Shown: positions 11,174-52,362 of the stretch, piece by piece
How positions within the stretch are numbered: the stretch's first letter is position 1
Layout of the letters: every line of letters begins with the position of its first letter
Assembly: GCA_049969795.1 (NCBI GenBank)
Contig: JBMFOE010000003.1
Span: 11,184 to 75,183, forward strand
DNA: 64,000 nt
Reading direction: 5' to 3'
DNA from: Desulfomonilaceae bacterium
GTDB lineage: Bacteria > Desulfobacterota > Desulfomonilia > Desulfomonilales > Desulfomonilaceae
Made by a program: the position numbers and the translations under genes
Notes under the pieces: model-generated
Database searches by the model: none
The model's input: the letters and a program-made list of their open reading frames with translations, nothing else
Told to the model about the DNA's origin: nothing

Positions 11174-11194
11174 GACAAGGCCCCTTGCCTTGTC
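11174..11194 (-). terminator. candidate hairpin terminator downstream of infC
   Basis: On the minus strand, GACAAGGC-AAGGG-GCCTTGTC (8-bp stem, 5-nt loop) is followed by a moderately U-rich tract (TCGCATGCTTTCTTCT). It lies about 65 nt after the infC stop. Confidence 0.35.
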
Positions 11195-17294: not shown

Positions 17295-17992
17295 ATGTTA
17301 AACGCGGCGATCCTTGCAGGGGTTGTCGGTGGCCTGATATGGCTGGACAAGTTCCAGGTGCTCCAGGTCATGGTGAGCAGGCCAATCGTATGCGCCCCCA
17401 TCCTCGGGTGGTGCCTGGGCGATGTCTCTGCCGGCGCTGCCACCGGCGTGCTCTTCGAACTCCTCTGGCTGCGGCGTCCTCCTATTGGGGGCTTCATAAG
17501 TCCGGATTCCACCTTTGGCGCAATCGCCGCGGCCGCGATTTCGAGCTGGGTTGTTCAGGCGGTCCGGGTGGATGTGAGTGCCGCGGTGTTCATCACCTTC
17601 CTGGCTGTATTCCCGGTCTGCTACGTAGGGACGAGGCTGGACGCCCAAGTGCGGCGTTACACCGGTAAGATAGCCCTGCGCGTGGAAACGCTTCAAAAAG
17701 AAGGCAAAGAGGGACGGGTCTTCGCATATTTTTTGTTGGGCCTTGCCATTGGGTTCTCCATGGCTTTTTTACTCATTTTCACCACAACTCTCTATGGCCT
17801 TTTGCTGATACCGCTTCTCTTGTCAGCCTTGCCCGCGAGGATTGTTCAGGTGCGGGTCTCGCCTATTACGTGGCGCCTCTTGTGGGGGTCGCGGATATGC
17901 TGGTGGGGCTCCACGAAAAAAGGCGCCTCATCCTGTTTTTTGTCGGTCTTGTGGGAACAATGTGTACGCTGTTCCTGCTTGGATGCCGTTGA
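17295..17992 (+). CDS. PTS mannose-family EIIC-like membrane protein, apparently frameshifted near nt 17846-17850
   Basis: Hydrophobic EIIC-like sequence runs in frame 0 to about 17845. The plausible continuation GAGLAYYVAPLVGVADMLVGLHEKRRLILFFVGLVGTMCTLFLLGCR* is in the neighbouring frame and stops at 17990-17992. Confidence 0.5.
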
Positions 17993-18011
17993 CAACCATA
18001 CCGATTTTTGC

Positions 18012-18470
18012 ATGGCGACCAACGTGAAGGGCGTGATTGCGCGGGAAATGACCGCGCCTGATCTTGATCAGGTCCTGTTCATCGAACAGAGCTCTTACGG
18101 CGCGCCATGGTCGCGAGACATGTTCATGGACGAAATATCGAATCCGCTGAGTCGGGCGCTGGTCTTTGAACTCGACGGCCGCATAGTGGGGTATTTGTGC
18201 TGCTGGGAGATTGTGGACGAATGCCATATACTGAACATCGCGGTGCATCCCGATTACCGTCGTCAGGGAGTCGGAAGCGCGATACTCAAGATTCTCGAGG
18301 CGGCCTGTCGGGCAAAAGGCCTCACACGAATCCTCTTGGACGTAGGCAGAAGGAACAATCCGGCGCGGAACCTGTACAAAAAAATGGGATTCAAGGCGGT
18401 TGGCTTTCGGAAAAATTACTACAAAGAGGTGGGTGACGACGCGTTGCTCATGGATAAAATCCTTACCTGA
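18012..18470 (+). CDS. rimI: ribosomal-protein-alanine N-acetyltransferase (GNAT)
   Basis: GNAT core ILNIAVHPDYRRQGVGSAIL ... NNPARNLYKKMGFK. Own ATG at 18012, 20 nt after the alternate-frame EIIC stop. Confidence 0.8.
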   Translation: MATNVKGVIAREMTAPDLDQVLFIEQSSYGAPWSRDMFMDEISNPLSRALVFELDGRIVGYLCCWEIVDECHILNIAVHPDYRRQGVGSAILKILEAACRAKGLTRILLDVGRRNNPARNLYKKMGFKAVGFRKNYYKEVGDDALLMDKILT

Positions 18471-19715: not shown

Positions 19716-22220
19716 GTGAATCGCGATTCCAAGACGTATTACCTGCCGTCCGTCTTGGTAGTCTCGGCCGCGGTTCTGGCCTGGCAATTAGGCCTGATGC
19801 GCTGCCTCTTGATTACCCGTTACTACCATTTTTCGTTTCTTATTATTAGTTGCGCATTGCTTGGATACGGAATAGGCGGCGTTGTCCTGTCGAGCTTTCA
19901 GCAATGGTTTGCCCATCACGGAACGGCTTTTTTTCGGTGGGGATGCCTGGGGCTCGGCCTTTCGATCCCGATATGTTTTTACGCTGCCGAGCTGCTGCCT
20001 TTGCAGGTCTTTTTTCCTCCGGAAGATCTGCTTTCGAGTATTTTTTGGTGGGCGCTCTACTGGGTGATTCAGAGCTTCCCTTTTGTGCTTGCTGGCGCTC
20101 TCACAGGATGGGCTCTGAGCGGACGCGCCGGGCCCGTCAATGTGGTCTATGCCTGCAGCCTTATCGGCGCCTCGTTGGGCGTTGCGGCTGGGATGCTATT
20201 CCTTTCCCGCTATGCACCTAATTTACTCGCGGCTCCCCTCGGACTCGCAGTCGCGGCAGGCTGCGCCGGACTCATACCGGGTTTGCCTTCGAGAGCAGGC
20301 TTTGCATACGGCCTTTGCGTTTTGGCCTCGTTGGTCGGTCTGGCAACGCTTCTGGTCATGGACGCCGACAAGGCGTTTCCCCTGAGGATAGATCAATACA
20401 AGACCCTCGCTCACGTGCAAAGACTGGTGGCTCAAAACGCCGCGCAAAGGATCCAGGCATTCGATGGTCTGCGCGGCAGGGTCGAACTCTACGCCAGCCC
20501 GCACTTTCATGCCCTGCTCTCCCTCGCATCGACGAAACGGCTGCCGGCTATGGACATCCTTATCAAGGACGGCGTCCAAATCGGGACCATCCCCGTAGTA
20601 AGAAATCTCCATGAAGTGGAGTTTCTGGACGAAACCCTCTTTGCGATCCCTTACCGGCTGGTGCGACCGAGGCGGGTTCTTATCCTTGGCGAAGCGGGCG
20701 CTATTCATCTCTGGAATGCCCGACTCCACCACCCTGATCTCATCCTATTGGTTCAGCCGGACGAGAATGTGGCGCGGGTTTTGAGAGCCCACCCTACTCG
20801 CCCTCTCGATGACCCGACGGTGCACGTCATCATCAGCGATACCAGAACGTTTCTAGAAAAAACGCATGAAACGTTCGATGTGATTCAGTTCGCCGAATTG
20901 GAGGGATTCGCCCCCGGCGCGAGCGGTATAGGCGGATTACGGGAAAACTACCTCGCCACAGTAGAAGGGTTCCGAAAATGTCTCGAGACCCTCACCCCTC
21001 GGGGAACGGCGTGCACAGTGAGGGGGATCCAGGATCCACCGCGGGATAACATCAAAATACTCGGGACCTGGTTTGAAGCTCTAAGAGCCGAGAGGAGTCA
21101 CGAGCCTGCCAGCCATATCGTGATGGCGCGTGATGAACTGGCATGCGCCATCCTCTGCTGGAAATCGCCCGTGACCCCAGCAACGGGCGGACAAATCGCG
21201 GAAATATGCCAGGAGAAATCGTGGGAACTGGAATGGGCGCCGCATGTACCAGGAGTCGGGGCGAATCGCGTGCACGCGCTCCCCGGGCCGCCGGATGCAT
21301 CCTTTTCATGGTACCACGAGGCCATCACAAAATTCCAACAGGGCCAGGCGGAGGAGTTCTATCGAAACTGGATTGCGCACGTCCGCCCTGCCACGGATGA
21401 CGTCCCCTATTTTTTTGATTTCTTTCGCATCGATTCCATCTCGCCTTTGAAACGCCAGTTTGGTCCCTTGTGGGCCGCTCGCTCAGAGATGGGGTTTCTC
21501 GTGCTCCTCACGTGTCTGGCCGCGACAGTGGTCGCCGCAACCTTGTTCCTCGTCACGGCCGTCTTGGGCGCGTTAAGGAGCGCCGGGCGCCCATTAGGCC
21601 GTGGGCTTTTGTGGGTTCTCTCGTTTTTCGCCATGATTGGAACCGCATTCATGCTCGTGGAGATGCTCCTGATTCAGGCGTTTACCAGGCTTCTGGGCGA
21701 TCCTGTGATAGCCGCCGGGGTGGTGTTGGCGGAGCTACTCCTTTTTTCAGGGCTGGGGAGCATATTGGAGCCTCTGCTCACGAGGCAAAGCCGTACGAGG
21801 ATGCTCGCAGCCGGGGCGCTGGCCGGCGTGATGCTGTTCCTGGCGCACGCAGGATTCAGACTCGCGCAATCCATCGCGGCAGGACTCCCTCTGCCTTATG
21901 CAATCGCGCTTTCAGTTGCGGTCATAGGGCCCATCGGATTCCTTATGGGGATGCCATTCCCTTGGGCAATGGCGAGAGTCAACAAACAAAATCCCACGGC
22001 GGCCCCGTTTGCCTGGGCGGTAAACTGCTTTGCGTCCGTGATCTCATCTCCCTTGGCAATTATCGCGGCCATGAGCCTTGGATTTCGCTTTCTCTGGACC
22101 ACAGGCTCTCTCCTTTACGGTCTTGTAGGCCTGTTGGCGTTGACCGCGTCGTGGGGGGCGAATTGCGACGCCCCAGAGGCGACTGGTCCGGCGAGCCATG
22201 AATCCCCCTCTGATGAATGA
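19716..22220 (+). CDS. polytopic membrane protein with central spermidine-synthase-like (class I MTase-fold) domain
   Basis: Many hydrophobic spans lie at both ends. The central VLILGEAGAIHLWNA ... VHVIISDTRTFLEKTHETFDVIQ resembles the spermidine synthase fold. GTG start. Confidence 0.65.
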   Translation: MNRDSKTYYLPSVLVVSAAVLAWQLGLMRCLLITRYYHFSFLIISCALLGYGIGGVVLSSFQQWFAHHGTAFFRWGCLGLGLSIPICFYAAELLPLQVFFPPEDLLSSIFWWALYWVIQSFPFVLAGALTGWALSGRAGPVNVVYACSLIGASLGVAAGMLFLSRYAPNLLAAPLGLAVAAGCAGLIPGLPSRAGFAYGLCVLASLVGLATLLVMDADKAFPLRIDQYKTLAHVQRLVAQNAAQRIQAFDGLRGRVELYASPHFHALLSLASTKRLPAMDILIKDGVQIGTIPVVRNLHEVEFLDETLFAIPYRLVRPRRVLILGEAGAIHLWNARLHHPDLILLVQPDENVARVLRAHPTRPLDDPTVHVIISDTRTFLEKTHETFDVIQFAELEGFAPGASGIGGLRENYLATVEGFRKCLETLTPRGTACTVRGIQDPPRDNIKILGTWFEALRAERSHEPASHIVMARDELACAILCWKSPVTPATGGQIAEICQEKSWELEWAPHVPGVGANRVHALPGPPDASFSWYHEAITKFQQGQAEEFYRNWIAHVRPATDDVPYFFDFFRIDSISPLKRQFGPLWAARSEMGFLVLLTCLAATVVAATLFLVTAVLGALRSAGRPLGRGLLWVLSFFAMIGTAFMLVEMLLIQAFTRLLGDPVIAAGVVLAELLLFSGLGSILEPLLTRQSRTRMLAAGALAGVMLFLAHAGFRLAQSIAAGLPLPYAIALSVAVIGPIGFLMGMPFPWAMARVNKQNPTAAPFAWAVNCFASVISSPLAIIAAMSLGFRFLWTTGSLLYGLVGLLALTASWGANCDAPEATGPASHESPSDE

Positions 22221-24062: not shown

Positions 24063-25337
24063 TCACCAAAACCAGTGCGGCCGCTGCGAGAGCCATTCTT
24101 CAGCGGTCGCTGTCAACCAATTTTTCAGGCTTGGTTCCACGTAGAATGACGGTTGCATGAGGTCACGGCCAGGAGGGATTATGCCGCGCTGTTCAGCGAT
24201 CATGGCCAGCCGAGTGTGGGGGTAAATCCGAATCCCAACAGACAACCGCAGGCTCTCCAGCTCAAGAGAATCTGCGAATCGGAGACTTTCCAACGCAGTC
24301 TCTTTCGACTCTTCGGGCCCGCCAAGAAGCAGGAAGCCGATGCGTTTGACGCCGTGAGCGGCAAAGAGGCGCGAAGTGTGTCGGACGTCTTCGGGGCTGA
24401 AGCGCTTGTTCATTGACCGGAGCACGCGTGTTGAACCGCTTTCAAAGCCCAGCGAGACTTCTTTACAGCCAGCAGCGGCCATGAGTTCCACGAGTTCGGC
24501 GTCGAGCCGTAGAGGATAGATGATGCAGCGCCACGCGATCTTGAGATTAGCCGCGATTATTTCCCTGCACAAACGCTTCGCGTACCAAGATGGCAAGTTA
24601 AAGGTGTTGTCCACGAAGTAAAATTGCGTGAACCCTTGGCCCGCGGCTAGGGTCAACCAGCGTGCAACCACGTCTGGGGATCGGAATCGCCACGCGGCCC
24701 CTTCTATGGTCTCTGTCGAGCAGTAGCTGCACCGCATTGGGCAGCCTCGGCGGGTCTGCACAGGCAGCCAAAAATTTTGATCTCCTGCCAGGGAATGAGG
24801 CAAGAAGTTTTTTCCGGGCAGCGCAAACCGGTCGAGATCTTTCTGAAACGTTTTTGGTGTGGCCGCTGCCGCTGCTCGGCGATGCAGACCGGGAACCGTC
24901 TCGGGGTGGAGGCCGAGCTCGACGTCGCGCGCCAATCGAACCATTGCCTCCTCGCCTTCACCTGATATTCCCATATCCGCCCCCAAAAATTCGAGGATGC
25001 TGCGGGGGCAAATGCTGTAACCAGCGCCTCCTAGCACGATGGGAACGCGTGTCAGTTCGCGGCACAAGGTCGCCACAGCCTTGACCTCCCCGAGAAAAGT
25101 CTTTGTGTCATTCATCTGCTGGTTGTCGATGTTTCTGGCAGATATCCCGACCAACGCGGGCGCAAAATCTTCCATACGGCGGGCAAGCGCAGAAGCGAAA
25201 TCCGACACTTCCATCAGGTCCATTGCGTACACATCGTGGCCGGCGTCCTGGAGAGCTTGAGCGACGCAAACCAATCCCAGCGGCCACGCACGCATGTTGA
25301 TCTCTTCTCGGTTCGCTGAAATCAGGAGGATTCTCAT
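24063..25337 (-). CDS. B12-binding-domain radical SAM protein
   Basis: N-terminal cobalamin-binding-like MRILLISANRE...LGLVCVAQALQDAGHDV and radical SAM CxxxCxxC (RRGCPMRCSYCS). Confidence 0.85.
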   Translation of the reverse strand: MRILLISANREEINMRAWPLGLVCVAQALQDAGHDVYAMDLMEVSDFASALARRMEDFAPALVGISARNIDNQQMNDTKTFLGEVKAVATLCRELTRVPIVLGGAGYSICPRSILEFLGADMGISGEGEEAMVRLARDVELGLHPETVPGLHRRAAAAATPKTFQKDLDRFALPGKNFLPHSLAGDQNFWLPVQTRRGCPMRCSYCSTETIEGAAWRFRSPDVVARWLTLAAGQGFTQFYFVDNTFNLPSWYAKRLCREIIAANLKIAWRCIIYPLRLDAELVELMAAAGCKEVSLGFESGSTRVLRSMNKRFSPEDVRHTSRLFAAHGVKRIGFLLLGGPEESKETALESLRFADSLELESLRLSVGIRIYPHTRLAMIAEQRGIIPPGRDLMQPSFYVEPSLKNWLTATAEEWLSQRPHWFW

Positions 25338-25582
25338 CGGTCTTCTCCAAAACCTCGACGGTACGAACTGTCATACCATAAGGCTGTTTCTGAGCTTCAT
25401 CAAGTACAGGAGTTGTCTTCAGTTTTTCACGCCTACTGCTCAAGAGGTGGAGCTTGAGAGAAACGGCCTTCTTCTGGTGATGGAGTTTGGTCTTGGCGAG
25501 ATGGCTTGAACTCGACTATTATGCCGAAAGAAGTGGTAAGAAGCTGTCTTGCAAAGAGACCTTAGGGAGCGAGGAAAATCTC

Positions 25583-26335
25583 ATGGGAAAGAAATCTGAA
25601 GAACAACAGATATTGAGAGTATTGATTCAGTTGGCCCAGGAAGAGAATAAGCTCACAGAGAACATGGTCGATATGATGGCCAAGACCAATGAATTGGCTC
25701 AAAGGCGTACGGAGAGCGCTGATCTTCGTACGCGTTTGTCTGAGGAGCGTACAGACCTTGCCAGGCAGCAAACAAACCTGGTTTCAAAGAGCGCGGACCT
25801 GGCAGAAAAAAGAACGCAAAGCGCGGATAAACGAACCGAGTTGTCTCAAGAACGCACGGAGCTTGCCAGAGAACAAACAAAGTTCAGCGCCCGCAGTACA
25901 GAGCTGGCGGAAAAACGCACGGAGCTGTCCGAAGTTCGAACAGACCTGGCCAAAGACAGGACATTGCTCGCCGAAGAACGCACAGGCCTGTCTCAGACGC
26001 GCACGGAGTTGGCAGCGGAACGCAATAATCTCGCTTCGAATCGAACGCTCTTGTCGAGCTATCGTTCTGTGCTTGCAAAGGGGAGGACAGAACTCGCGTT
26101 TATTCGGACTGGTCTTGCGTTCGTTGCTCTCGGGATTGGTCTGATGAGATACTTCGGAGTTGGCTTGTGGACGATCCTGGATTGCAGCCTTGTCGCTGTC
26201 GGCATCGGCAGTACCGTCTTCGGCGTGAAAAACTACCTTGTAACATGGAAGTATGAGCGCGTATTTCAGGAAAGAGTTTTAGCGTTGATTTCCGATGTAA
26301 ATTCGCAGAATCCACGCCAAAGCGACCTGGTGTAA
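25583..26335 (+). CDS. DUF202/YidH-like membrane protein with expanded xRTxL[AS]x heptad array
   Basis: 20 consecutive heptads (residues 41-180) end in the canonical DUF202 signature GRTELAFIRTGLAFVALGIGL, followed by 2-3 TM helices. RBS GGAGCGAGGA before ATG 25583. Confidence 0.6.
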   Translation: MGKKSEEQQILRVLIQLAQEENKLTENMVDMMAKTNELAQRRTESADLRTRLSEERTDLARQQTNLVSKSADLAEKRTQSADKRTELSQERTELAREQTKFSARSTELAEKRTELSEVRTDLAKDRTLLAEERTGLSQTRTELAAERNNLASNRTLLSSYRSVLAKGRTELAFIRTGLAFVALGIGLMRYFGVGLWTILDCSLVAVGIGSTVFGVKNYLVTWKYERVFQERVLALISDVNSQNPRQSDLV

Positions 26336-35357: not shown

Positions 35358-36251
35358 CTACGCCGGCGCGACAGTCCGGTAATAAAAGCCGTCTTCCGAG
35401 ATGACCGCGCCCCGCCGCATTAGGCGCTCGAGATGCTTTCCCATGAGCATACGTTCGCCGAAGGTAAAAAACCACGCGGGCTCTCGTTTCTTTCCATACA
35501 CAATACAGGCATCGACAATTTGATCCATGGTTCGAGGCCGCTCCAACAGGTCCAAGAGTTTTGCTTCTCGTTGGTCGATGACGCGCAGGTAGTCGTCCCA
35601 CTTGTCCCCCGGATCGCTCTCGAAAACCCCGACTTCGTGTGATGAAATCCACACCTTCGCCTCTATGCCGCGGAGTTTGTTCACAGAGGCTATCGTGGCG
35701 TCGATGTCTGAATCAACATCGCCGTAGTATGGTCCAAAGGGAGTGAGATCGTAGTCGCCCAAAAAAAGTACCTGGGGTTCAGGGAAAAACAGCGAGACAT
35801 GGCCGGCCGTATGCCCTGGGGTGGGGAGCACCCGAACCGTCACACCGCCTAGGTCGATAACCTCTTCCTCGGAGAAGAAACGATCCGTGTTGCGAGGCTT
35901 GAAATGGAAATCAGAGACCATTGGTTCACGAAAGATATCCCGTTCCTCGGGCTGCATGCCATACGCGTCAAAGAGGTTGTCGAGACTTTGAAGGGATTGC
36001 GCTCCGTGGAGCGGCGCCCATAGTTCGCAGTCGGCAAAGAGATCGAGGTCTTTGAAATGATCTTCGTGGGTATGGGACAGCCATACGCAATCGATGCCAT
36101 CATGTTCAATCAGATCTTTGAGGCGCTTGCGATCTGAACCGGGATCGACCACGACCTTTAGGTCGCCTCGTATGAACAGTGAATGACAAAAAGGGTATCG
36201 TCCGAAGTTTTTCCCGGGGATGAACTCCACTGGTCCGAATCGAGTATTCAT
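35358..36251 (-). CDS. MBL-fold metallo-hydrolase
   Basis: WLSHTHEDHF (HxHxDH) and a later PGHTAGH. Confidence 0.75.
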   Translation of the reverse strand: MNTRFGPVEFIPGKNFGRYPFCHSLFIRGDLKVVVDPGSDRKRLKDLIEHDGIDCVWLSHTHEDHFKDLDLFADCELWAPLHGAQSLQSLDNLFDAYGMQPEERDIFREPMVSDFHFKPRNTDRFFSEEEVIDLGGVTVRVLPTPGHTAGHVSLFFPEPQVLFLGDYDLTPFGPYYGDVDSDIDATIASVNKLRGIEAKVWISSHEVGVFESDPGDKWDDYLRVIDQREAKLLDLLERPRTMDQIVDACIVYGKKREPAWFFTFGERMLMGKHLERLMRRGAVISEDGFYYRTVAPA

Positions 36252-36386: not shown

Positions 36387-38144
36387 CTAGGCGTACAGAA
36401 ACCGGTACGCAATGGCCTCGATCCCCGCAAGGATGAAATTGCAGTCCACCAAGGCTTCAAAAAAGAGTCGATCCACTGGATGACCTTTGTGATACAGAGC
36501 GACCAGGCCCCACAGCACCACGACGTTCACCATGAGCCACCAGGCCAGCCCTGTGACCCACCCCCACCACGCCGCGGCGCCCAACATGCAGATAATGCAC
36601 AAAACAAGGGCATTCAGGAGCCTTATGGTGCGAGGCGCGCCTATGAGGATAGGTATGGTCTCCCGGCCGACTATCCGATCGCCCTGGATGTCCAACAAAT
36701 CAGAAAGCGCGGTGCGGGTAAACACGCAGCCAGCTGCAAAGAAGAAGGCCGCTGCGACGCTTGGCAGCATGGACAAGTCGATGGCGCGTGCAGCGGGAAG
36801 CACAGCCGCGGCCATGGCCCAGCCGGCTGCCACCAGCGGCGTCTTGGACCCCGGGAAGTCTTTCAAACTCCGCCATTTCAGCGAGGGAAACAAGCTAGGA
36901 GGCAAGAGCTGAGCAGTATAAATACCGCCGGCAGAAATCATCAGGAGCAGCAAGAGAAAGGGATATATCCCCATGAAGGAGCTCAGCGTCAAAGCGAACA
37001 CTGATGAAGAGGCCGCAAGAATCGTCAACAGCGTACGATACCTTGCGTAAAACGCGGCTATTTGAGGCGTGTTAAATCGGACCGCGCCGGACGCGTCATG
37101 GATGCGATTGAACAGGTGCATAGAAAAGACGAAAAGGCAGGACACGGCAACCGGCAGCGCTGACAATGACATGTTCTGAAGGGCCATACAAGCCGCGCTA
37201 AGCGCGCCGCCTGCCAATGCAGCCCAGACGTAAGTCATGATGGCCGCGTCAATGACTTTCCTTGCCAGAGGAAACAATCCCTTTTTGCGTTGGAGATCGA
37301 TCTCTTTTATCTTGTCAATGACGCTGAGAATGAGCCAGTTTGGAGTGCTCGCCCCCGCGGTAACGCCTACCGCGTCTATCCCCTCTAAATGCTGGGCAGA
37401 CAGTTCTTCTTCCGTTTCCACATGCAAGGTCTTCTTACCCTTCGATTCCGCTACCTTGACCAAGCGCGTAGTGTTGCCGGAACCTCGACCGCCCACCACG
37501 ATCACCAGGTCCACGGTCTCTGCGAGTTGCGCTACTTCGTGCTGGCGCTTGCGGGTCGAATTGCATATCGTGTTGTAATTGCGCACATCACGAAAGCGGT
37601 CCTTGATCATTCGGGATATGGCTTCGAACTTTTCCGGTTCCTGGGTTGTCTGGGCTACCAAACATATTCGTCTGTTATCGGGAATTTCATCCATTGCGCG
37701 TAAAGCGCTGGTTGCATCTGGTATGACTACTGCCCCGGCCGCGGCAAAACCCACCAAACCCTTTACTTCCGGGTGATCTTGGTCGCCGACAATGATGCAG
37801 AAATCTCCTGCCCGCGCATGCTTGGCAATGATTGCCTGAACTCGGGCCACGCGAGGACAGGTGGCGTCAACCACCAGGTCTGCTCGCTCTTGCAACTCCT
37901 TGCGTTCCTGAGGCGATATACCGTGCGCGCGAATAATGACGGTTCCGCCCTGCACTTCCGACAAGTCTGTTACCTGTCCTATGCCTTTGGATTGCAAGAG
38001 TTTCAGGGTTTGGGGGTTGTGTATAAGCGGTCCGTAGGTGACGATAGGAGTGGGCACGGATTGCCTCTGGATGTCCAATACCATCTCCACGGCGCGGCGC
38101 ACGCCCATGCAAAAACCCGCCGTCTTCGCAAGCCGAATCTTCAT
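36387..38144 (-). CDS. ispH: 4-hydroxy-3-methylbut-2-enyl diphosphate reductase fused to a C-terminal UbiA-superfamily prenyltransferase membrane domain
   Basis: IspH motifs GFCMGVRRAVE, GPLIHNPQ, DATCPRVARVQ and VVGGRGSGNTTRL lie in residues 1-285. About 300 further residues follow with multiple TM spans and LLDIQGDRIVGRETIPILIG, an Asp-rich UbiA motif. Confidence 0.8.
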   Translation of the reverse strand: MKIRLAKTAGFCMGVRRAVEMVLDIQRQSVPTPIVTYGPLIHNPQTLKLLQSKGIGQVTDLSEVQGGTVIIRAHGISPQERKELQERADLVVDATCPRVARVQAIIAKHARAGDFCIIVGDQDHPEVKGLVGFAAAGAVVIPDATSALRAMDEIPDNRRICLVAQTTQEPEKFEAISRMIKDRFRDVRNYNTICNSTRKRQHEVAQLAETVDLVIVVGGRGSGNTTRLVKVAESKGKKTLHVETEEELSAQHLEGIDAVGVTAGASTPNWLILSVIDKIKEIDLQRKKGLFPLARKVIDAAIMTYVWAALAGGALSAACMALQNMSLSALPVAVSCLFVFSMHLFNRIHDASGAVRFNTPQIAAFYARYRTLLTILAASSSVFALTLSSFMGIYPFLLLLLMISAGGIYTAQLLPPSLFPSLKWRSLKDFPGSKTPLVAAGWAMAAAVLPAARAIDLSMLPSVAAAFFFAAGCVFTRTALSDLLDIQGDRIVGRETIPILIGAPRTIRLLNALVLCIICMLGAAAWWGWVTGLAWWLMVNVVVLWGLVALYHKGHPVDRLFFEALVDCNFILAGIEAIAYRFLYA

Positions 38145-38242: not shown

Positions 38243-38857
38243 TCAATCATGATAGCGATATGCGGTCATCTTTTCCCAGTCCTGCAGCGTGTCAACGTCC
38301 ATATCGTCATAGATATCGCCCACTTCGACGCGAAGAACCGCGTCTGGGTTGGCCTCGAGTATCGAACGGCCGCCTCGATCTCCGACCAACGAAAGCAGCG
38401 CCGGAAAAAAGCGACGTGGGAAGATCACAGGGGTCGTCTGCCGGCCATCCACGGTAGGAGCCACAATCGCGGAGGGCGATTCAGAAAAGATGACTAAAAG
38501 ATGATCAATGACATCCGTGGTGAGTTTTGCCTGATCCCCCAAAATAATCATTACGCCGTCTCTGTTTAGCCCGATGATGGACTGCATCCCCGCCACGATA
38601 GACGACGCCATGCCCGCCTCGGGCGTCTGGTTGCACACGGCTTGGAGCTTCGAGTGGCGGGAAAGTTCGCCCAACGATTGGACGAGCGGATCATGGTTTC
38701 TTCCCGCGACGATGACCACTTCATCCAGTTGCGACGCCAACGCTGCCCTAACTACCCGATAAATGACTGATTTGTTGCCAAGTTCCATCAAAAGCTTCGG
38801 CCTTCCCATTCTTGTGGAGAGGCCGGCGGCAAGCACGATGCCGGCGAGCCTTACCAT
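38243..38857 (-). CDS. MobA/MocA-like nucleotidyltransferase (NTP_transf_3)
   Basis: GIVLAAGLSTRMGRPKLL N-terminal signature. Confidence 0.7.
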   Translation of the reverse strand: MVRLAGIVLAAGLSTRMGRPKLLMELGNKSVIYRVVRAALASQLDEVVIVAGRNHDPLVQSLGELSRHSKLQAVCNQTPEAGMASSIVAGMQSIIGLNRDGVMIILGDQAKLTTDVIDHLLVIFSESPSAIVAPTVDGRQTTPVIFPRRFFPALLSLVGDRGGRSILEANPDAVLRVEVGDIYDDMDVDTLQDWEKMTAYRYHD

Positions 38858-38916: not shown

Positions 38917-40797
38917 TCATTGGATGCTCTGAACGCTTTCCAGCGCCGCTGAATCAGTTCGAGGGGTCTGGATGAGAGCATTGAACTCTTCTCCGTCGAT
39001 GGTTTCTTTTTCGAGCAAGCGGGAAGCCACCAGGTGCAAAAGGTTTTCGTGCGTCTTTAGCGTTTCCAGCGTCAGCCGAAGGCGCGAATCAACGATGGAG
39101 CGAACTTCCTGGTCGATTAAACGAGCCGTTTCCTCGCTTATTTCCTTGGGAGGCAAGAAAGGTTGCTGAGGCAGGAAAGGGGTTGGCGCGTTTTGGTACG
39201 CCACCGCGCCCAGGGTCTCAGTCATCCCATATAGGGTTACCATGCTGCGGGCAATGTCGGTGGCCCGCTGAAGATCGTTCTGGGCGCCGGTGGTGACATC
39301 TTGGAATATCAGTTGTTCCGCTGCTCTTCCGCCGAGGAGGACGTCTATTTTTTCCAACAATTCCTTGCGAGACATCAAGTATCTGTCTTCAGTTGGTAAT
39401 TGGAGCGTGAAGCCCAGGGCGCCTATGCCTCGCGGCACGATGGAAATCTTGTGCACCTTTTCAGCTGTCTCTCGGAACGCGGCCACCAAGGCATGGCCTG
39501 TCTCATGATACGCAACCGTCTTTTTCTCTAGGTCGTTAAGGACGCGATTTTTCTTCTCTAGTCCTGCAATAATTCGGTCAATGGCCTCTTCCAGTTCTTG
39601 CGGCCCGACGCTCTGCCTGTTTTTGCGCGCCGCGAGCAAGGCAGCTTCATTGATGAGGTTCGCCAAGTCTGCGCCTGTGAAACCGGGCGTACGACGAGCT
39701 ATCACTTCCAGGTCCACATCCGGGGAAAGGGTCACATTGCGCGTATGAACTTTGAGGATGTCAATCCTCCCTTTGAGGTCAGGCCGATCCACAAGGATAT
39801 GTCTGTCGAATCGCCCAGGTCGCAGCAGCGCCGGGTCAAGGATCTCAGGCCTGTTGGTGGCTGCAAGGATTACCACCCCTTGGTTCGCTTGAAATCCGTC
39901 CATTTCAACTAGCAACTGATTCAAGGTCTGTTCCCGCTCATCATGGCCCGCGAGCGTCCCAGTCCCCCGAGCCTTCCCCAAGGCGTCTAACTCGTCGATG
40001 AAAACCAGGCAGGGAGCCATCTTACTGGCCTGTTCAAAGAGGTCTCTGACCCGCGCCGCGCCCAGACCCACAAACATTTCAATGAAATCCGAGCCGCTGA
40101 TGGAGAAAAAAGGCACGCCAGCTTCCCCTGCTACCGCTTTTGCCAACAGGGTTTTCCCTGTGCCGGGCGGTCCAACCAGGAGGACGCCTTTGGGTATCTT
40201 TGCCCCCAGACGAGTGAAACGATCGGGGTTTTGGAGAAATTCCAGAATCTCCTGAAGTTCTTGTTTGGCTTCGTCTTGGCCTGCAACGTCCTGAAAGGTC
40301 ACTCCCACGTCAGTCTGGGCAACGATTTTTGCCTTGTTTTTGCCCAAGGTCATGATTCCTGACCCCTGCCCCATCTTTTTCATTGCCCACACCCAGATCC
40401 CCACAAAGATCACGGACGGAAGAATCCAGGACAGCAGATTCATGAGGAACGTGTTTTCGTTCTCCGCAATGATTTCGACATTATTCTGTTCAAGAAAATC
40501 GATGAGATTCTTGTCGTCAACCCGCGGCGTCCTGTACACAGAGGCTGGGAACAGCGGCTCGGTCGTCTGGCCTTTCATCTTCTCATAGCCTTTCAGGAAA
40601 TGCGTTGAAACCACCACGCTGGTGATGTTTCCATCGGCTATCAAACGCTTGAATTTCGAGTAGGAAACGTTCTCTATTTTCGGGGAGAGCCAACTTTGTA
40701 AGAGGGTGAGGATAAGGAACGCGATCAAAATGTAAGCGATGGAAAAGGATGTCTTGGTTTTCATGTCTTTTGGATTTTTCATGAAAGTGTTCCTCAT
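38917..40797 (-). CDS. ftsH: ATP-dependent zinc metalloprotease FtsH
   Basis: Walker [19 protein letters not shown], the SRH region and HETGHAL (HExxH). Confidence 0.95.
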
Positions 40798-41157: not shown

Positions 41158-42360
41158 TCATTCTGGAAGGTCTTCGACTCGAGTCACTAGCCCGTCCCTG
41201 CTGCACCAGTAACGTCTCCCATGCCAGTCGATAAAACCCCTGAATATTGAGTGTAGGAAGATGAAAGCCCCTGAAAAAAGGAGCGGAAACAACGACAGCA
41301 GCCATGCGGCAACAGCAATATGCGGCGTCACAAGCTTTCTCGCAAGCAGCATCAAAATCATCATGCCGCCGACCAATCCTAAGCCCGCGTACTGAAGAGC
41401 GTTGCCACTTTCATGCGCGAGAAAAAAGCGCGCCCCTTCCCACAACGCCAAGGGTACAGCAATGGCGAGGTTCACGTATAAAACGAGAAGCGTTCCCCAC
41501 ATCTCATGATTCGTGAACTTCGGAAACATGATTTGCCTGTCGAGATACCCGAGCAACGACCGGAACGAATGATTCCTGAGAGGCGAGATGAGGAGGTTTT
41601 TGGGGTCCATCGATACCTTGACGCCCGCTCGAGCGAGGAGATTCCCCAGCACCAAATCGTCCACCACCGTTTTTGACCACACGTCTCTGATGGGCAATGT
41701 TTCCAAGATAGCTCGCCTAATTCCGGTGCCGCCTCCCCAGGGTTTTGGGGCAACTGACGCCAAGAGAAGCACGACCACCCCATACATCGTCTGGGTAACT
41801 CCCGCAATGTTTTGAGGCCGAGGGAAAAAGCGTCGGAAGGTGGTGACAACCTCGGATTCGCCGCTTCGCAAAAGCCTCGTGAATCGCCTGAGCCACTCCG
41901 GCGGCGCCGCATTCGTACTGTCGCAGAACACTACAATCTCAGTCTCGGGTTTCAAGTTTGAAAGCGCGTACACGAGATTGTGGTTTTTTTGTCCGCAGCC
42001 GGCGGCGATGCCTGCAATGAGTTTTCTGGCATGTTGGTATTCCGTGCAGAGCTGATCGATGGCCGATGAGGCGAGGTCATCCTCGCTTTCGACGACAAGC
42101 GTCACCGTATATGAGGGGTATTCCTGTTCCAAAAGGGTTTGAAGCGCATTTTTTTGGTCAGCATTCGCGCCTTTTACAGGCACGATGATTTCTATGGGAG
42201 GCGTGTGAAGGCTGTTCTCTGAGACGTCTCGCTTGCGAAACGCGATCCATACCTTGATAAGACCAGCGTACAACAAGATGTAGGCGGGAACAGCCAAAGA
42301 AAAAGCCGCGATCGACGCGACATGAAGGTATTCGATTGAGTGCGTCACCAAATTACACAA
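41158..42360 (-). CDS. membrane glycosyltransferase, GT-A fold (GT2/GT21, ceramide glucosyltransferase/HpnI-like)
   Basis: N-terminal TM helix, then IEIIVPVKGANADQ...YTVTLVVESEDD...VFCDSTN (DxD-like) and C-terminal TM helices. The exact start is ambiguous: TTG/GTG within 42346-42360. Confidence 0.6.
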   Translation of the reverse strand: MCNLVTHSIEYLHVASIAAFSLAVPAYILLYAGLIKVWIAFRKRDVSENSLHTPPIEIIVPVKGANADQKNALQTLLEQEYPSYTVTLVVESEDDLASSAIDQLCTEYQHARKLIAGIAAGCGQKNHNLVYALSNLKPETEIVVFCDSTNAAPPEWLRRFTRLLRSGESEVVTTFRRFFPRPQNIAGVTQTMYGVVVLLLASVAPKPWGGGTGIRRAILETLPIRDVWSKTVVDDLVLGNLLARAGVKVSMDPKNLLISPLRNHSFRSLLGYLDRQIMFPKFTNHEMWGTLLVLYVNLAIAVPLALWEGARFFLAHESGNALQYAGLGLVGGMMILMLLARKLVTPHIAVAAWLLSLFPLLFSGAFIFLHSIFRGFIDWHGRRYWCSRDGLVTRVEDLPE

Positions 42361-42695
42361 TCCTCACTCTTCCACAAATCGGCGCGGACAAAGAATACTC
42401 GATAATGCTTTGCGCGACCAGCCCCTGTGAGCCGAAACGTTTGGGCCGATTGCTCAAAATTTATCTCGAGACTGCTTTGCTTTGTTTCCGATGACGTATC
42501 GGTAAGCTTCCTGTCGTTGGGAGGATCCCAAGACGACGACGCAAGCTCAGCGCACCTCGATCGGACACAGACACCTCGATCCATACCCGATTCGCATGGA
42601 GAACCGCTGGGAGAGAGCTACGCGTTGGGTGAGCCGGGGGTCGGATGTGGGAGGGCGACTCCCCAAAGGCGGCGCGATATAAAGAGAGGAGAATC

Positions 42696-43802
42696 TTACT
42701 CTTGCACGCTTACCTTCACGGTGCAGGTCATGCCGTCCTTAATTATTCCACCCGGATTCTCATCGAGCAGGCACTCGACATCGTAATCGGCCGGCACCTC
42801 GAGGGCGGGGTTGCGGCTTGTGAAGGGTATGCGGTCAATCCGGCAGGAAAACTTCTTGTCTGTTATCGCATCGAAGATCACGGTGGCCCTATCGCCGGTT
42901 TTCAGCTTTACGAGATCCAATTCGTGCACCTTGCACCGTACAAGAAGCGGGTCAATAGGGGCGATCACCATAGCTTGAAAACCATTGGGCAGTTGGGCCT
43001 GCGGCCTGAATTCAGGGTTGATTCGCAAGACCACGCCGTCGATGGGGGATTTGAGGAACGCCTGCTTGAGGTCTTTATCTTGGTCTTTGGGCCCAAACGG
43101 TCGGTTCAGTTGCCACTCCAAGAGCGCGATGGAATTTGTGTAGGTTCCGAGGGCAAAGTCGTAGTTTTCTTTGGCCACCTTCCTGGCTGCCCGAGTCTGC
43201 TCGATATTCTTCTCCAGATCTGCCTTTTCTTTCTCGGCAACCTGAAGCTGGTTCTCAAGGTTTTTGACCGCAGAATCCTGCACCAGATCTTTTCCGCGGA
43301 GTTCCTTGATGTTGCTCAACTCCCGTTTAATTTTGTCCAGCGCAATCTGTTTGATGGGAAGGGCTATTTCTTCGAGTTTTTTCAGGGCCATTTCAGTATC
43401 AGCCAAGGCCTTTTTGGCGTTGTCCACGTTCGCGGTTTTCACCACATTATACACATGGGCCAGCGATTGAGGATCGAGTTCGTACTCGGCGAGTATGTCC
43501 CCTGTCTTCACGTTTTGTCCTTCCGTGACTTTTACGTCCTTCACCACGCCCCCAAGGTACATGACAATTGGCCTTTTGAATACGGAAAAACTCTTTCCCC
43601 GCAACTGGATCTCAAGTTCGGATTTGGCGTCTGCTATTTGAGGGACAATAGCCGCTTTCGCTGGCATAGGACTCGACACCGCCTTTTTTGGTTCCTGGGT
43701 TATGGCAACGAGCGCCAACGAACTCAACGCCACCAAAACGGCAAGCGTGACGCCCAGTCCTCTCGCCATGCGCCGGGGTCTCTCAGTATTGAATTCCGGC
43801 AT
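42696..43802 (-). CDS. HlyD-family / efflux periplasmic adaptor (membrane fusion) protein
   Basis: Signal anchor, a lipoyl-like hairpin (VKVTEGQNVKTGDILAEY ... SPIDGVV), a long coiled coil and a beta-barrel C-terminus. Confidence 0.7.
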   Translation of the reverse strand: MPEFNTERPRRMARGLGVTLAVLVALSSLALVAITQEPKKAVSSPMPAKAAIVPQIADAKSELEIQLRGKSFSVFKRPIVMYLGGVVKDVKVTEGQNVKTGDILAEYELDPQSLAHVYNVVKTANVDNAKKALADTEMALKKLEEIALPIKQIALDKIKRELSNIKELRGKDLVQDSAVKNLENQLQVAEKEKADLEKNIEQTRAARKVAKENYDFALGTYTNSIALLEWQLNRPFGPKDQDKDLKQAFLKSPIDGVVLRINPEFRPQAQLPNGFQAMVIAPIDPLLVRCKVHELDLVKLKTGDRATVIFDAITDKKFSCRIDRIPFTSRNPALEVPADYDVECLLDENPGGIIKDGMTCTVKVSVQE

Positions 43803-45177
43803 TGTACCTGTTCAAACCTCCCGAAATAGTGGCTAACTCTATCAAGGCGTTTACCCTCTCCATCACGGCATTCAAGGCTCCCAAGCGCGCCTGAACCTTT
43901 GCGACGCCCTGATCCATGTATAGATCGTAGGTGAGCGTTCCCGCTTTGTATTGACTCAGAGCCCTTTCTTCCGAAGCCTCGGCCAGATTCATCTGCTCCC
44001 TGGCATAGCCCTCTTTTTCCACCGCAAGCTTGATTTCCGATCGCAGGGCTCGGAATCTGTCGTACAACTGCTGTGCAACCTCGTTGCGTTCTATTCTGAT
44101 TTGACTGGCCCTTAGTTTTTGCCGCTTGATGTCCCTCACCCTGCGGAAACCGTCCCACAGCGTGTAGTCCAGCCCCACGCCAAAAGTAGTTCCGGAAGTT
44201 GCATCCACCGGGTTATTGAGGTCTTGGAAAATCACTACCGGTCGCGGCAACAGGCGCAGATACGCGCCGGAGACCATATTGGATTGAAATTGCTCTCTTT
44301 TGGCGATGACCTTGAGGCCGAGGTTGCCGGCTTGGATATCGGCAAAGGTGATGTGGCTCCCATTAAATCCAAAAAGTATCTGATTCGCTGCATCCCTCGT
44401 ATCGAGCGGCAGATGAAAATCCGGGGGATATCCCATCATGATTTTGAGCTGCCGGGTCGCCTGGTCCATGGCGTTTTCCAGTCCCCTGATCTTGATCTCT
44501 TGGGCACGCTGGTTGTTGACAAGGGCGCGGGCTGCTATGGGATCATAGTCGCCCTGATCTTTTCTCGTGCGCGCATAATTCACCTTGTTCTTGAGCAACG
44601 CCGCAATTTGCCGCTCTGCGCGGATTGTCTTCTCCAACACGCTTATCCGGTAAAACAATTTAGCCATGTTGCCAATGTGTTCAGAAATCTTTTGTTGATG
44701 CGTGGTGGTGGCCGCGTCCACGAGGATCGCCTTGGCCTTGATCTTAACCAATGCGAGCATGGGATTGAAATTGGTCATCACGAGACTGGCAGAGAATTTC
44801 TGATTGCCTGCTGTACGATCGTTATAATTCCGCGTCCGGGTAAAATAGTAACGCGTTTGAACCTCGAGGGTCGGAAAAATTTCGGAATGAGCGTCCTTGA
44901 GGTCTGCGGATTGGATCTGGATCTCTAGTCGATTCTTTATAAGGGTTTCGGAGTGAACCAGCGCATAGCGTACGCAGGTAGGGAAATCGAAATACCCATA
45001 CGACACGGGCGCAACCTCGGGGCCCGCCGCGGCAGGCTGAGGAAAAATGGCGCTCAAGCTCATGAGCAGGGCTAGACTGCACAGCGCCGCCAGACGCGCA
45101 ACCCCTGCCGCGCACGAGATGCGTCGCTGCCTCGGCGCCCAAGTATCCCTCTCACGCCTCTTAGTCACAACATGCAC
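43783..45177 (-). CDS. TolC-family outer-membrane efflux protein
   Basis: Signal peptide and two OEP-type repeats with long helical segments. Overlaps the adaptor gene start by 20 nt. Confidence 0.7.
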   Translation of the reverse strand: MHVVTKRRERDTWAPRQRRISCAAGVARLAALCSLALLMSLSAIFPQPAAAGPEVAPVSYGYFDFPTCVRYALVHSETLIKNRLEIQIQSADLKDAHSEIFPTLEVQTRYYFTRTRNYNDRTAGNQKFSASLVMTNFNPMLALVKIKAKAILVDAATTTHQQKISEHIGNMAKLFYRISVLEKTIRAERQIAALLKNKVNYARTRKDQGDYDPIAARALVNNQRAQEIKIRGLENAMDQATRQLKIMMGYPPDFHLPLDTRDAANQILFGFNGSHITFADIQAGNLGLKVIAKREQFQSNMVSGAYLRLLPRPVVIFQDLNNPVDATSGTTFGVGLDYTLWDGFRRVRDIKRQKLRASQIRIERNEVAQQLYDRFRALRSEIKLAVEKEGYAREQMNLAEASEERALSQYKAGTLTYDLYMDQGVAKVQARLGALNAVMERVNALIELATISGGLNRYNAGIQY

Positions 45178-49920: not shown

Positions 49921-49953
49921 AGGGGCTCTACGCGTGTTTTGCAAAGGTGCGAT

Positions 49954-52362
49954 GTGGCGATTTTCCTTTTCATTAACGTCAATCATGACGTAGGGCGTGA
50001 AAGTTCGGAAAGCATTCCCATTTCCCTGGGATATGTCCTGGCTGCGGTACAGGCTGCCGGCGGCTCTGGCGTCATTTTGGATGACCTGAGAGATGGGCCT
50101 TTAACGCTGAAGACGCTTGAAAAATGGATCAGAAAGATACAGCCGGATATAGTGGGATTCACGGCGTACCAGTGTACGATGCATCGAATACGTTTCTTGT
50201 GCCGTTATGTCAAATCGCGCTATCCCCATATTCTTACCATGCTCGGCGGGCCTCAAATATTCGCCATGCCTTCACACGCGCTTTTCAACCTGCCGGATGT
50301 GGACATCCTCGTGCGTGGGGATGGCGAATACATAGTTCCTCGCCTAGCGGCTGCGCTTGATGCGGAGCGGAGTCTGGATGATGTTGAGGGAATAACCTTC
50401 CGTAGGGACGGCGAGGTGATCGACGCCAGACCGCTGCCGCGCCTAGCCAACGATCTCGATGAATATCCCTCTCCTTACTTGAAGGGAATCCTGAATCTCC
50501 AGGGAAAGACCACGGCCATTCTGCTTTCGTCCCGCGGCTGCAAACACGTCTGTCGTTTCTGCATAACGCCGAAACTTTGCGGCGGCGCGGTTCGATACCA
50601 TTCCATCGAGAGGGTGATCTCGGAGATGGAGTTCTTGGCCCGCATGGGTATCGAGCGATTCTGGTTCGCTGATCCGAACTTTACCGAAGACAAAGAAAGA
50701 ACCTCGTTGCTTTTGGAAGAAAAGATTCGTCGAGGCATAGGGACGCCTTTTTGGTGCCAAACTAGGGCGGACCTCGTTGACGCTGACATGTTGCGCCAGC
50801 TCAAACACGCGGGCGCGGACACCATTGCGTTCGGTTTGGAATCCGGCAGTCCCCAGGTCTTGCAAAAGACTGGGAAACGCATCGAACTCGATCAATTGGA
50901 AGAACACATACGCACGGCCCAGGCGCTTGGCATGGAAACGGAGCTGTTTTCGATCTTTGGGCTGCCCGGCGAAACAGTCGAAGACGCCAGACGCACAATG
51001 GAATTTCTCAAATCTCTCGGAATACCGATTCAATCGAATTCGGGTTCGCAGCAGATGCAGCTCTATTTCGGGTCGGTTTATGAGAGAGACCCAGAGAAAT
51101 TTGGCATCGTTCCAAGAAGGGAATACAGACCAGCATATTTGTCTATAGGAGAGGATTACGAAACCACCGCGATGTCAGCTCGTGACCTGGCGAAGGTCCG
51201 GAATTTATGGGCGCTGGCAAATGAACAGATGGAAACAGACGTCTATTATAAACAGCGAACGTTTGAGGTGCTGCAATTCCTGATAGAGAATCGCGACGAC
51301 CTCGCGCACGAACCGTCGTACTATGCCTACGGCGCGCTGGCATCCGCGGCCATCGAGGATTATTTCCTCCTCGAACAATTCCTCGAAGGATATGAAAGGC
51401 TTCCGTCCCACATGCGGCCGCCTACTCAAGAGCTTTTGGCAATGATTCCCTTCTTTCAAGAATCGTCAGACCCAATACAGCCACAGGACAGAGTCATATT
51501 CGACTCTCGAAGCTTCATCGATGGGATACCCTTTACTGGCATTTCCGGCAAGTATTGGGATGTCTTATTGGGGAGAGGCCTACTTTTGGAAGACTTTGAA
51601 GCGGGTTTCTTGGGCGCCCGGGCAGGTATGGCCATCGAGTTCAGTTTCGTTTTTCCGAATGATTACTTTCAAGCAGAACTCGGCGGGAAACAGGTCGAGG
51701 TGCATGCGAAGATTCACAAGGTTTTCACGCCCATCGCAATATCATCCATTGACGAACTGAAACGTACTCCATTCCGAAACAAATATTGTTTCAACGACCT
51801 GAACCTGCTGCGCGACCAAAATGAAATCCTTTATTACCTTGCGCTCAGGGATGCTGACCCTGCGACGCTCCTGAAGACCCCGACACATTTTTTGGCGTTG
51901 GTTCATAGGCTGGCGAAGCTGAGCAAGTATGAGGAGATCGGGAAGCTGGCCGCGCTTATTGCGAATAAGCCCACAGCCTTGCATGCCTTTGCAGAAACCT
52001 TAGCAGTCTGCGGAAAATACGAATGGGCGCTCCCCTACTATGAAGCCCTTTCTCATCATCTCCCCTCTGCAATGCTCAAGCAAATAAGGTGCTTATTACA
52101 CATGGGGCAGCATGAGAGAGCTGCAGCCCTCATGTCAGAGATACCCCCGAGCAAGGATTATGAATACCAGCAGGTCCTTCTTGAATGCCTCATGAAGGTG
52201 GACCCAGGATCGGAGCGCATTCCAGAACTAGAGCATCAGGTCATGGACTTGAGAGTGAAAGACGCAGTAACCAGGGAGGCTTTTGCCCGAGGAAATCATT
52301 TTGCCTCTCGTCCCGTTGTGCATGGCTTCGTTCGTGACGACGCCAGAGACGAGGAAATATAG
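49954..52362 (+). CDS. B12-binding radical SAM enzyme fused to a trigger-factor/FKBP-type PPIase-like domain and a helical C-terminal region
   Basis: B12-like N-terminus; CKHVCRFC (CxxxCxxC); residues about 515-597 (QDRVIFDSRSFIDGIPFTG...LGRGLLLEDFEAGFLGARAGMAIEFSFVFPNDYFQAELGGKQVEVHAKIHKV) align with the trigger factor PPIase domain. The ORF opens at TTG 49939; GTG 49954 has the better RBS (AAAGG). Confidence 0.8.
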   Translation: MAIFLFINVNHDVGRESSESIPISLGYVLAAVQAAGGSGVILDDLRDGPLTLKTLEKWIRKIQPDIVGFTAYQCTMHRIRFLCRYVKSRYPHILTMLGGPQIFAMPSHALFNLPDVDILVRGDGEYIVPRLAAALDAERSLDDVEGITFRRDGEVIDARPLPRLANDLDEYPSPYLKGILNLQGKTTAILLSSRGCKHVCRFCITPKLCGGAVRYHSIERVISEMEFLARMGIERFWFADPNFTEDKERTSLLLEEKIRRGIGTPFWCQTRADLVDADMLRQLKHAGADTIAFGLESGSPQVLQKTGKRIELDQLEEHIRTAQALGMETELFSIFGLPGETVEDARRTMEFLKSLGIPIQSNSGSQQMQLYFGSVYERDPEKFGIVPRREYRPAYLSIGEDYETTAMSARDLAKVRNLWALANEQMETDVYYKQRTFEVLQFLIENRDDLAHEPSYYAYGALASAAIEDYFLLEQFLEGYERLPSHMRPPTQELLAMIPFFQESSDPIQPQDRVIFDSRSFIDGIPFTGISGKYWDVLLGRGLLLEDFEAGFLGARAGMAIEFSFVFPNDYFQAELGGKQVEVHAKIHKVFTPIAISSIDELKRTPFRNKYCFNDLNLLRDQNEILYYLALRDADPATLLKTPTHFLALVHRLAKLSKYEEIGKLAALIANKPTALHAFAETLAVCGKYEWALPYYEALSHHLPSAMLKQIRCLLHMGQHERAAALMSEIPPSKDYEYQQVLLECLMKVDPGSERIPELEHQVMDLRVKDAVTREAFARGNHFASRPVVHGFVRDDARDEEI

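Follow-up and report, generated by a model that had tools for sequence, protein, structure and literature searches.

An in-frame IspH-UbiA fusion in a Desulfomonilaceae bacterium, with a membrane half that carries an atypical prenyltransferase signature

The stretch of 64,000 nucleotides analysed here, which we call the window, covers positions 11,184 to 75,183 of contig JBMFOE010000003.1 in the Desulfomonilaceae assembly GCA_049969795.1. At 36387..38144 on its minus strand it encodes one protein in which IspH is joined to a membrane domain of the UbiA prenyltransferase superfamily. IspH, or HMBPP reductase, is the last enzyme of the methylerythritol phosphate (MEP) pathway, and its products are isopentenyl diphosphate (IPP) and dimethylallyl diphosphate (DMAPP). 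The fusion is genuine and full-length, and the reading that we favour, as fairly probable, is that of an IspH which works, is anchored in the membrane and is joined to an active, atypical prenyl-diphosphate transferase. The IspH-UbiA architecture is already known and was published in 2015 (Rao, O'Dowd, Li, Wang & Oldfield 2015, Chem Sci 6:6813, PMC4746011); the window gene, an ordinary family member, almost certainly belongs to this family and shares its architecture.

The open reading frame (ORF) has 585 codons, begins with ATG and ends with the stop codon at 36387-36389, and the plus strand of the same interval is riddled with stops when translated. The parts of the gene are as follows, TM standing for transmembrane, pLDDT for the predicted local distance difference test of the AlphaFold models, and HL for the loops between helices.

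36387..38144, minus strand: the whole IspH-UbiA fusion gene, a single ATG-started ORF with collinear full-length homologues.
37290..38144, minus strand: IspH/LytB domain, residues 1-285, from Pfam LYTB, TIGR00216 and alignment to solved IspH structures.
37230..37289, minus strand: linker, short and basic, with a pre-membrane helix (residues 286-305, RKKGLFPLARKVIDAAIMTY); its four K/R fit a position in the cytoplasm, and a helix is predicted at 291-303, pLDDT ~90.
36390..37229, minus strand: UbiA-fold membrane domain, residues 306-585, with nine predicted TM helices, from PF01040, AlphaFold and Foldseek.
37047..37124, minus strand: non-canonical motif 1, residues 341-366 (SMHLFN346RIHD350ASGA354VRFN358TP360QIAAFY), spanning the TM2 end and loop HL2-3.
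36840..36860, minus strand: conserved cytoplasmic loop motif D429-F-P-G-S-K434-T before TM5, from column conservation in both clades of the family.
36639..36716, minus strand: Asp-rich motif 2, residues 477-502 (R477TALSD482LLD485IQGD489RIVGRETIPILIG), spanning the TM6 end and loop HL6-7.

An earlier reading of this DNA, made from its letters without any database search (the sequence-only reading), had proposed the in-frame fusion and had raised the possibility of a sequencing error that hides a stop or frameshift at the junction. The fusion would then be an artefact of assembly or sequencing, made of two separate genes. What could speak for this is that three related loci are interrupted (L044 by an in-frame stop in the IspH part, L045 and L067 by frameshifts) and that some database entries contain UbiA only. 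Two of the three interrupted loci come from the MFD series of metagenome-assembled genomes (MAGs), which we take to be long-read assemblies. Against it, each of the 83 related loci has an IspH domain directly upstream of the UbiA one, and in 80 of them one stop-free ORF runs across both domains; these come from independent assemblies, including the complete genomes of Desulfomonile tiedjei (CP003360) and Desulfosarcina widdelii (AP021875). The best 120 homologues in a search with the full protein are all ~570-585 aa with both Pfam domains in each, and the alignment to homologues is collinear through the junction. The D. tiedjei complete-genome protein, to which the window protein is 56% identical, is one of these 120. 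The window protein is matched at 100% identity by P0001, a partial NCBI entry that comes from a MAG of the Desulfomonilaceae. The artefact is thus refuted for practical purposes, and its probability is vanishingly small.

Most of the short entries whose sequence was read are fragments or shortened gene calls. The apparent stand-alone UbiA relatives P0165, P0181, P0229 and P0206 start inside the C-terminal region of IspH (VTAGASTPNW...), and P0174, P0215 and P0242 at a Met within the last helix of IspH, so that none of the seven was retained as such. P0006 is a truncated gene call, in L003 (8001-8846) the call was shortened over a continuous ORF, and only P0241 is a possible true stand-alone UbiA among the short entries that were read.

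The taxonomic spread of the fusion, for which the sequence-only reading had suggested a survey, proved to be wide. In a scan for relatives of the UbiA half with one genome per species, at least 568 species-representative genomes encode such a relative; 80 loci were kept, and all 80 belong to Desulfobacterota or to unclassified "delta proteobacterium" MAGs. When 1.84 billion cluster representatives were searched exhaustively with a profile, 342 family members came out at E <= 1e-30, most of them 560-590 aa long and with the UbiA match beginning near residue 285. Two clades are used below. Clade A consists of Desulfomonilaceae/Syntrophaceae-like members, with a UbiA half 45-88% identical to that of the window protein, and clade B of Desulfobacterales members, in which this identity is 33-40%.

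The IspH half is, judged by its sequence, complete and shows no sign of degeneration. Pfam LYTB (PF02401) matches residues 3-280 over the entire profile (1-267 of 267; E 1.5e-90, 303.5 bits against a cutoff of 24.5), and NCBIfam TIGR00216 for ispH is likewise covered in full (1-282 of 282; 289.2 bits against 187.85). NF000907, which bears on the IspH-RPS1 fusions, covers only the IspH part of the window protein, with 307 bits against a cutoff of 624. The protein aligns end to end with the IspH of Aquifex aeolicus (3DNF, 209 bits) and of E. coli. The hallmarks that had been recognised by eye in residues 1-285 are all in place: GFCMGVRRAVE at 10-20, GPLIHNPQ at 38-45, DATCPRVARVQ at 93-103 and VVGGRGSGNTTRL at 216-228. 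In E. coli IspH the 4Fe-4S cluster is held by C12, C96 and C197, and established structural work gives H41, H74, H124, E126, T167, S225-N227 and S269 as catalytic or substrate residues. The window protein has the corresponding ligands C12, C96 and C194, aligned to the E. coli and A. aeolicus cysteines, and H42, H74, H124, E126, T166/T167, S222-G-N224 and S266 aligned to their E. coli counterparts. Among 122 fusions, C96, C194 and all of these catalytic positions are each at least 90% conserved, and the C12 column falls below that threshold.

The C-terminal half is recognised by Pfam UbiA (PF01040) with 40.2 bits in the full protein and 43.6 bits when this half is searched alone, against a gathering threshold of 34.2, mainly over profile positions 71-229. 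The gathering score was exceeded in all 15 family members that were tested. About eight hydrophobic spans had been counted by the sequence-only reading; AlphaFold2 places nine TM helices after a short pre-membrane helix. The model of the UbiA half, built from a 126-sequence alignment, has a pLDDT of 93.2 and a predicted template modelling score (pTM) of 0.91, and the full-length model reaches 92.9 and 0.87. With the linker at pLDDT ~90, the full-length pTM suggests that the two domains have a fixed arrangement in the model rather than being joined by a floppy tether. The least confident parts are the loops around motifs 1 and 2 (pLDDT 67-83); mobile cap loops over a UbiA active site would be expected to give such low values. 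Positive charges are biased in the predicted loops, with 12 K/R on the cytoplasmic side and 1 on the periplasmic side, which in the model puts IspH and the loops HL2-3, HL4-5 and HL6-7, all three polar and conserved, in the cytoplasm, as in other UbiA enzymes.

The 15 best Foldseek matches in the PDB are all of the UbiA family and include AfUbiA (4TQ3/4TQ4, TM-score 0.60), 7BPU/6M31, ApUbiA (4OD4), 8J8K and 8DJK. Of these 7BPU/6M31 is digeranylgeranylglyceryl phosphate (DGGGP) synthase, 8J8K is decaprenylphosphoryl-5-phosphoribose (DPPR) synthase, and 8DJK is UBIAD1 in complex with HMG-CoA reductase (HMGCR). By sequence profile the sole PDB match is DGGGP synthase 6M31 (E 6e-4), where motif 2 aligns to KDFEDMEGDK of Methanocaldococcus jannaschii. 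The nearest NCBIfam models are likewise archaeal DGGGP synthase-like (PRK13591, PRK12872 and PRK12882), with 25-31 bits against cutoffs of 238-296, and membership in the DGGGP synthases was rejected as the equivalog cutoff was not reached. The MenA models gave 16-18 bits against a cutoff of 277. Alignment with E. coli UbiA in hhalign had a probability of 1% (E 0.054) and joined motif 2 alone, and the models for ChlG and homogentisate prenyltransferase were matched weakly by 2-3 of 15 members; membership in these groups was rejected as well, and so was membership in CyoE, since NCBIfam, the PDB profile, hhalign and Foldseek gave placement at the superfamily level only. The UbiA half appears on sequence to be a deep, separate branch of the superfamily that leans weakly towards the archaeal DGGGP synthase-like enzymes. 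Neither a geranylgeranylglyceryl phosphate (GGGP) synthase nor a glycerol-1-phosphate (G1P) dehydrogenase turned up among the ~25 large window ORFs that were scanned.

The catalytic signature of this half is divided. The Asp-rich motif that the sequence-only reading had pointed to is present as LSDLLDIQGDRIVGRETIPILIG at residues 480-502, and motif 2 is intact, with the core D482xxD485xQGD489R and the consensus R477-x4-D482-x2-D485-x-Q-G-D489-R-x2-G-x2-T-x-P-I-x2-G. Across both clades R477, G488, D489, G493 and G502 never vary, and conservation reaches at least 90% at D482, D485, Q487 and R490. Outside the motif the picture is similar: K434 is invariant, with at least 90% conservation in the two clades at its neighbours P431, G432, S433 and T435; N358 and P360 do not vary either, and N346 and E563 reach at least 90%. 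The degenerate first motif that had been suspected, FNRIHDASG, is found at residues 345-353, and the canonical NDxxDxxxD is not present. Loss of the catalytic Asp residues had been named as what would make the half a mere membrane anchor, and here the outcome is mixed: those of motif 2 are kept, and motif 1 is down to one acidic residue. With that single residue left, the site for diphosphate and Mg2+ would be atypical, and the metal/diphosphate site of the UbiA half must presumably differ from that of textbook UbiA enzymes.

Clade A reads N-R-I-x-[E/D]-x-S-G-A at motif 1, with an acidic residue at N+4 and Ala at N+8 in 87 of 87 members. More divergent members mostly have N-x3-D ... N-D-P. The shift of the acidic residue from N+4 to N+8 between the clades looks as though the presumed metal site had been rewired in a clade-specific way.

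One may ask whether the UbiA half is catalytically dead and serves as a membrane anchor or a ligand-sensing module, which localises or regulates IspH in response to a prenyl diphosphate or a quinone. Two of the three canonical acidic positions are lost in motif 1 and the survivor depends on the clade, which would suit such a role. A loose analogue exists in UBIAD1, which senses geranylgeranyl diphosphate and controls HMG-CoA reductase, and the UBIAD1-HMGCR complex 8DJK is among the structural matches. The membrane protease FtsH, moreover, is encoded just upstream of the fusion in 14 of the 24 clade A loci that have at least 5 kb of upstream sequence. Membrane localisation has been mentioned as a possible role of the UbiA domain and, separately, IspH as a sensor (PMC4746011). 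FtsH is however a housekeeping gene, and the adjacency is missing in clade B and in part of clade A. The motif 2 core, R477, K434, N358 and P360 are invariant or nearly so over a deep divergence, although a ligand sensor could need the same residues. With UbiA halves that are 33-40% identical to the window protein, conservation of motif 2, K434, N358 and P360 is more than a mere anchor would be expected to keep, and the pattern fits what one would predict for a ligand-binding or catalytic site, not for a passive anchor. We regard a dead anchor or sensor as unlikely.

The reading that we prefer, that of a working IspH anchored in the membrane by an active prenyl-diphosphate transferase, has two parts. 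The fusion is probably the cell's working IspH, given its conserved catalytic residues and, in either clade, a setting of core housekeeping genes. For the second part, a UbiA half that is active as an atypical prenyl-diphosphate transferase, we put the odds at about even or slightly better. IspH would then be held at the inner face of the membrane through the UbiA half, an allylic prenyl diphosphate and Mg2+ would be bound through the set D482/D485/D489/R477/K434, and the prenyl group would be transferred by the UbiA half to an acceptor. Through the fusion, C5 diphosphates that have just been formed, or their elongation products, would be available preferentially to the transferase. A local supply of IPP and DMAPP from IspH to a membrane prenyltransferase has been proposed before (PMC4746011).

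Several observations weigh against this. Motif 1 is not the canonical NDxxDxxxD: the window protein reads N346-R-I-H-D350-A-S-G-A354, and in clade B the N+4 position is Gly in 26 of 31 members and an Asp stands at N+8, after a one-residue deletion, in 29 of 31. In mutagenesis work on other UbiA enzymes, loss of the motif 1 Asp residues abolishes activity. The Pfam UbiA score of the full protein lies barely over its gathering threshold, and no curated subfamily model in NCBIfam comes near its cutoff for the UbiA half; without a curated subfamily the acceptor cannot be inferred. Nor was a partner gene common to both clades found in the 24 clade A loci and 31 clade B loci with enough flank. The full-length fusion protein, finally, could not be expressed in the earlier study (PMC4746011).

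The genes around the fusion in the window are these.

41158..42360, minus strand: HpnI-like membrane GT2/GT21 glycosyltransferase (Glyco_tranf_2_3, Glyco_transf_21; TIGR03472 HpnI at 82.5 bits over the full length, against a cutoff of 310).
38917-40797, minus strand: FtsH, upstream neighbour.
38243-38857, minus strand: MocA-like NTP_transf_3 nucleotidyltransferase, immediately upstream (PF12804, E 2e-36; TIGR03310 MocA at 159 bits, below its cutoff of 186).
35358-36251, minus strand: hydrolase of the metallo-beta-lactamase (MBL) fold, downstream.

The sequence-only reading had named ftsH and the MocA-like gene upstream and the MBL hydrolase downstream, and this agrees with what we find; all three are on the minus strand and their order fits a fusion on that strand. 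The MBL hydrolase is conserved in none of the 83 related loci. In clade A the recurrent order is HpnI-like GT2/GT21 glycosyltransferase, FtsH (not always present), MocA-like nucleotidyltransferase and IspH-UbiA, and the HpnI-like glycosyltransferase is co-localised with the fusion among loci L003-L030, L045 and L076. In D. tiedjei the fusion is followed by tuf, rpmG, secE, nusG and rplK. The clade B context is another one, with parA, parB and then a conserved set of NYN/YacP and DUF3842 (and CooT in some loci) before IspH-UbiA (e.g. L085, 7238-7844), and with plsY, often on the opposite strand, or ATP synthase genes downstream. Scans for promoters and terminators in the locus gave sites no more numerous than in shuffled sequence, and no other isoprenoid-pathway genes turned up among the ~25 large window ORFs.

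The clade A order invites the idea that the UbiA half, the HpnI-like glycosyltransferase and the MocA-like nucleotidyltransferase together build a prenyl lipid that is glycosylated or modified in its head group. The glycosyltransferase is found in 19 and the nucleotidyltransferase in 20 of the 24 clade A loci, and the link survives where FtsH or the nucleotidyltransferase is absent (L005, L009, L014, L023, L027 and L030); in L023, L027 and L030 the glycosyltransferase directly adjoins the fusion. The glycosyltransferase also aligns from end to end with HpnI, an enzyme that adds a sugar to an isoprenoid lipid, although the score of 82.5 is far under the cutoff of 310. Both neighbours are however missing from all 31 clade B loci, the shared gene order may simply have been inherited by genomes that are related, the nucleotidyltransferase most resembles the molybdenum-cofactor enzyme MocA, and there are no clear operon signals. 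We consider such a lipid partnership quite improbable.

A wider hypothesis takes the UbiA half not for a conventional prenyltransferase with two motifs but for a diverged module with a reduced metal site, which would have one of two roles. It could directly prenylate a membrane acceptor specific to Desulfobacterota with fresh C5 or short-chain diphosphate, after which the HpnI-like glycosyltransferase would decorate the product in the Desulfomonilaceae clade, or, covalently joined to IspH, it could sense prenyl diphosphates and exert feedback on this last enzyme of the MEP pathway, as a bacterial counterpart of the UBIAD1-HMGCR pair. This is a speculative proposal and an improbable one; if true, it would mean that a major group of anaerobes has either a new lipid or a MEP pathway that is regulated in a new way.

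The matter is of some weight. IspH is essential and a target for drugs and herbicides, and a form of it that sits in the membrane, fused to a prenyltransferase-like domain, implies that in at least 568 Desulfobacterota species the last part of the MEP pathway is organised otherwise than in model bacteria. The Desulfobacterota carriers are key organisms in the anoxic cycling of carbon and sulfur. Finding the acceptor of the UbiA half could bring to light an isoprenoid lipid that has gone unrecognised, or a regulatory link that is new.

Some other ORFs of the window deserve mention in their own right. At 17295-18470 (plus strand) a protein of 391 aa has a region like the sorbose-type IIC component of the phosphotransferase system (residues 5-184) and a C-terminal GNAT acetyltransferase (259-366), which is an unusual pairing, and an 834-aa ORF at 19716-22220 (plus strand) has no Pfam match at E <= 1e-5. 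Two B12-binding radical-SAM proteins are encoded at 24063-25337 (minus strand) and 49939-52362 (plus strand); the latter is 807 aa long, with ~450 C-terminal residues that have no Pfam match. The 282-aa ORF at 25487-26335 (plus strand) has many short tandem repeats of the "ERTxLA" type, followed by a hydrophobic C-terminus. A 394-aa ORF at 42645-43829 (plus strand) is almost exactly antisense to an HlyD-like adaptor gene at 42696-43802 (minus strand), and is probably spurious since the gene on the minus strand has family support.

Compared with known systems, the IspH half agrees with the stand-alone enzymes of E. coli (3KE8) and A. aeolicus (3DNF) in its full-length alignment, its three Cys ligands and its catalytic residues. 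The window protein differs from them by an extra C-terminal membrane domain of 300 residues, and by prediction it is integral to the membrane and not soluble. The IspH-RPS1 fusions of Clostridia and Fusobacteria (PMC4746011) share the N-terminal IspH, a roughly two-fold larger protein and the anaerobic hosts, but their C-terminal part consists of soluble S1 RNA-binding repeats, where the window protein has a membrane domain. With the archaeal UbiA structures (AfUbiA 4TQ3/4TQ4, DGGGP synthase 6M31/7BPU and ApUbiA 4OD4/4OD5) the UbiA half has the nine-TM fold in common at TM-scores of 0.56-0.61, with 14-16% identity and a root mean square deviation of ~6 Å. Motif 2 of DGGGP synthase aligns with D-x-x-D-x-x-G-D followed by G-x-x-[ST]-x-P-I-x-x-G in the window protein, whereas motif 1 is unlike that of the archaeal homologues and is without two of the three acidic positions and without the R-P loop signature.

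The closest comparison is with the 47 IspH-UbiA "Rosetta stone" fusions from sulfate reducers, in which the UbiA part was classed as CDD PT_UbiA_5 and its function left open (PMC4746011). The sequence-only reading knew of no characterised enzyme with this architecture, and this still holds; the novelty that it implied does not. For the time after 2015 no characterisation of IspH-UbiA was found in the literature, only that paper and one citation of it, and a lipocone paper was a false lead. The fusions of Rao et al. and the window protein have the same N-terminal IspH, the same UbiA-like C-terminal part of about nine TM helices and the same length of ~570-585 aa, and they come from the same host group, the sulfate-reducing "deltaproteobacteria" that are now Desulfobacterota. 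Two DXXXD repeats were stated for those fusions, whereas in the window protein and in clade A motif 1 is only N-x3-[D/E]-x3-A. We see no essential difference otherwise, and the window protein is a further member of the family, from a Desulfomonilaceae MAG. What is added here is the non-canonical motif 1 with its clade-specific acidic switch, a distribution more than ten times wider, and the clade-specific gene neighbours.

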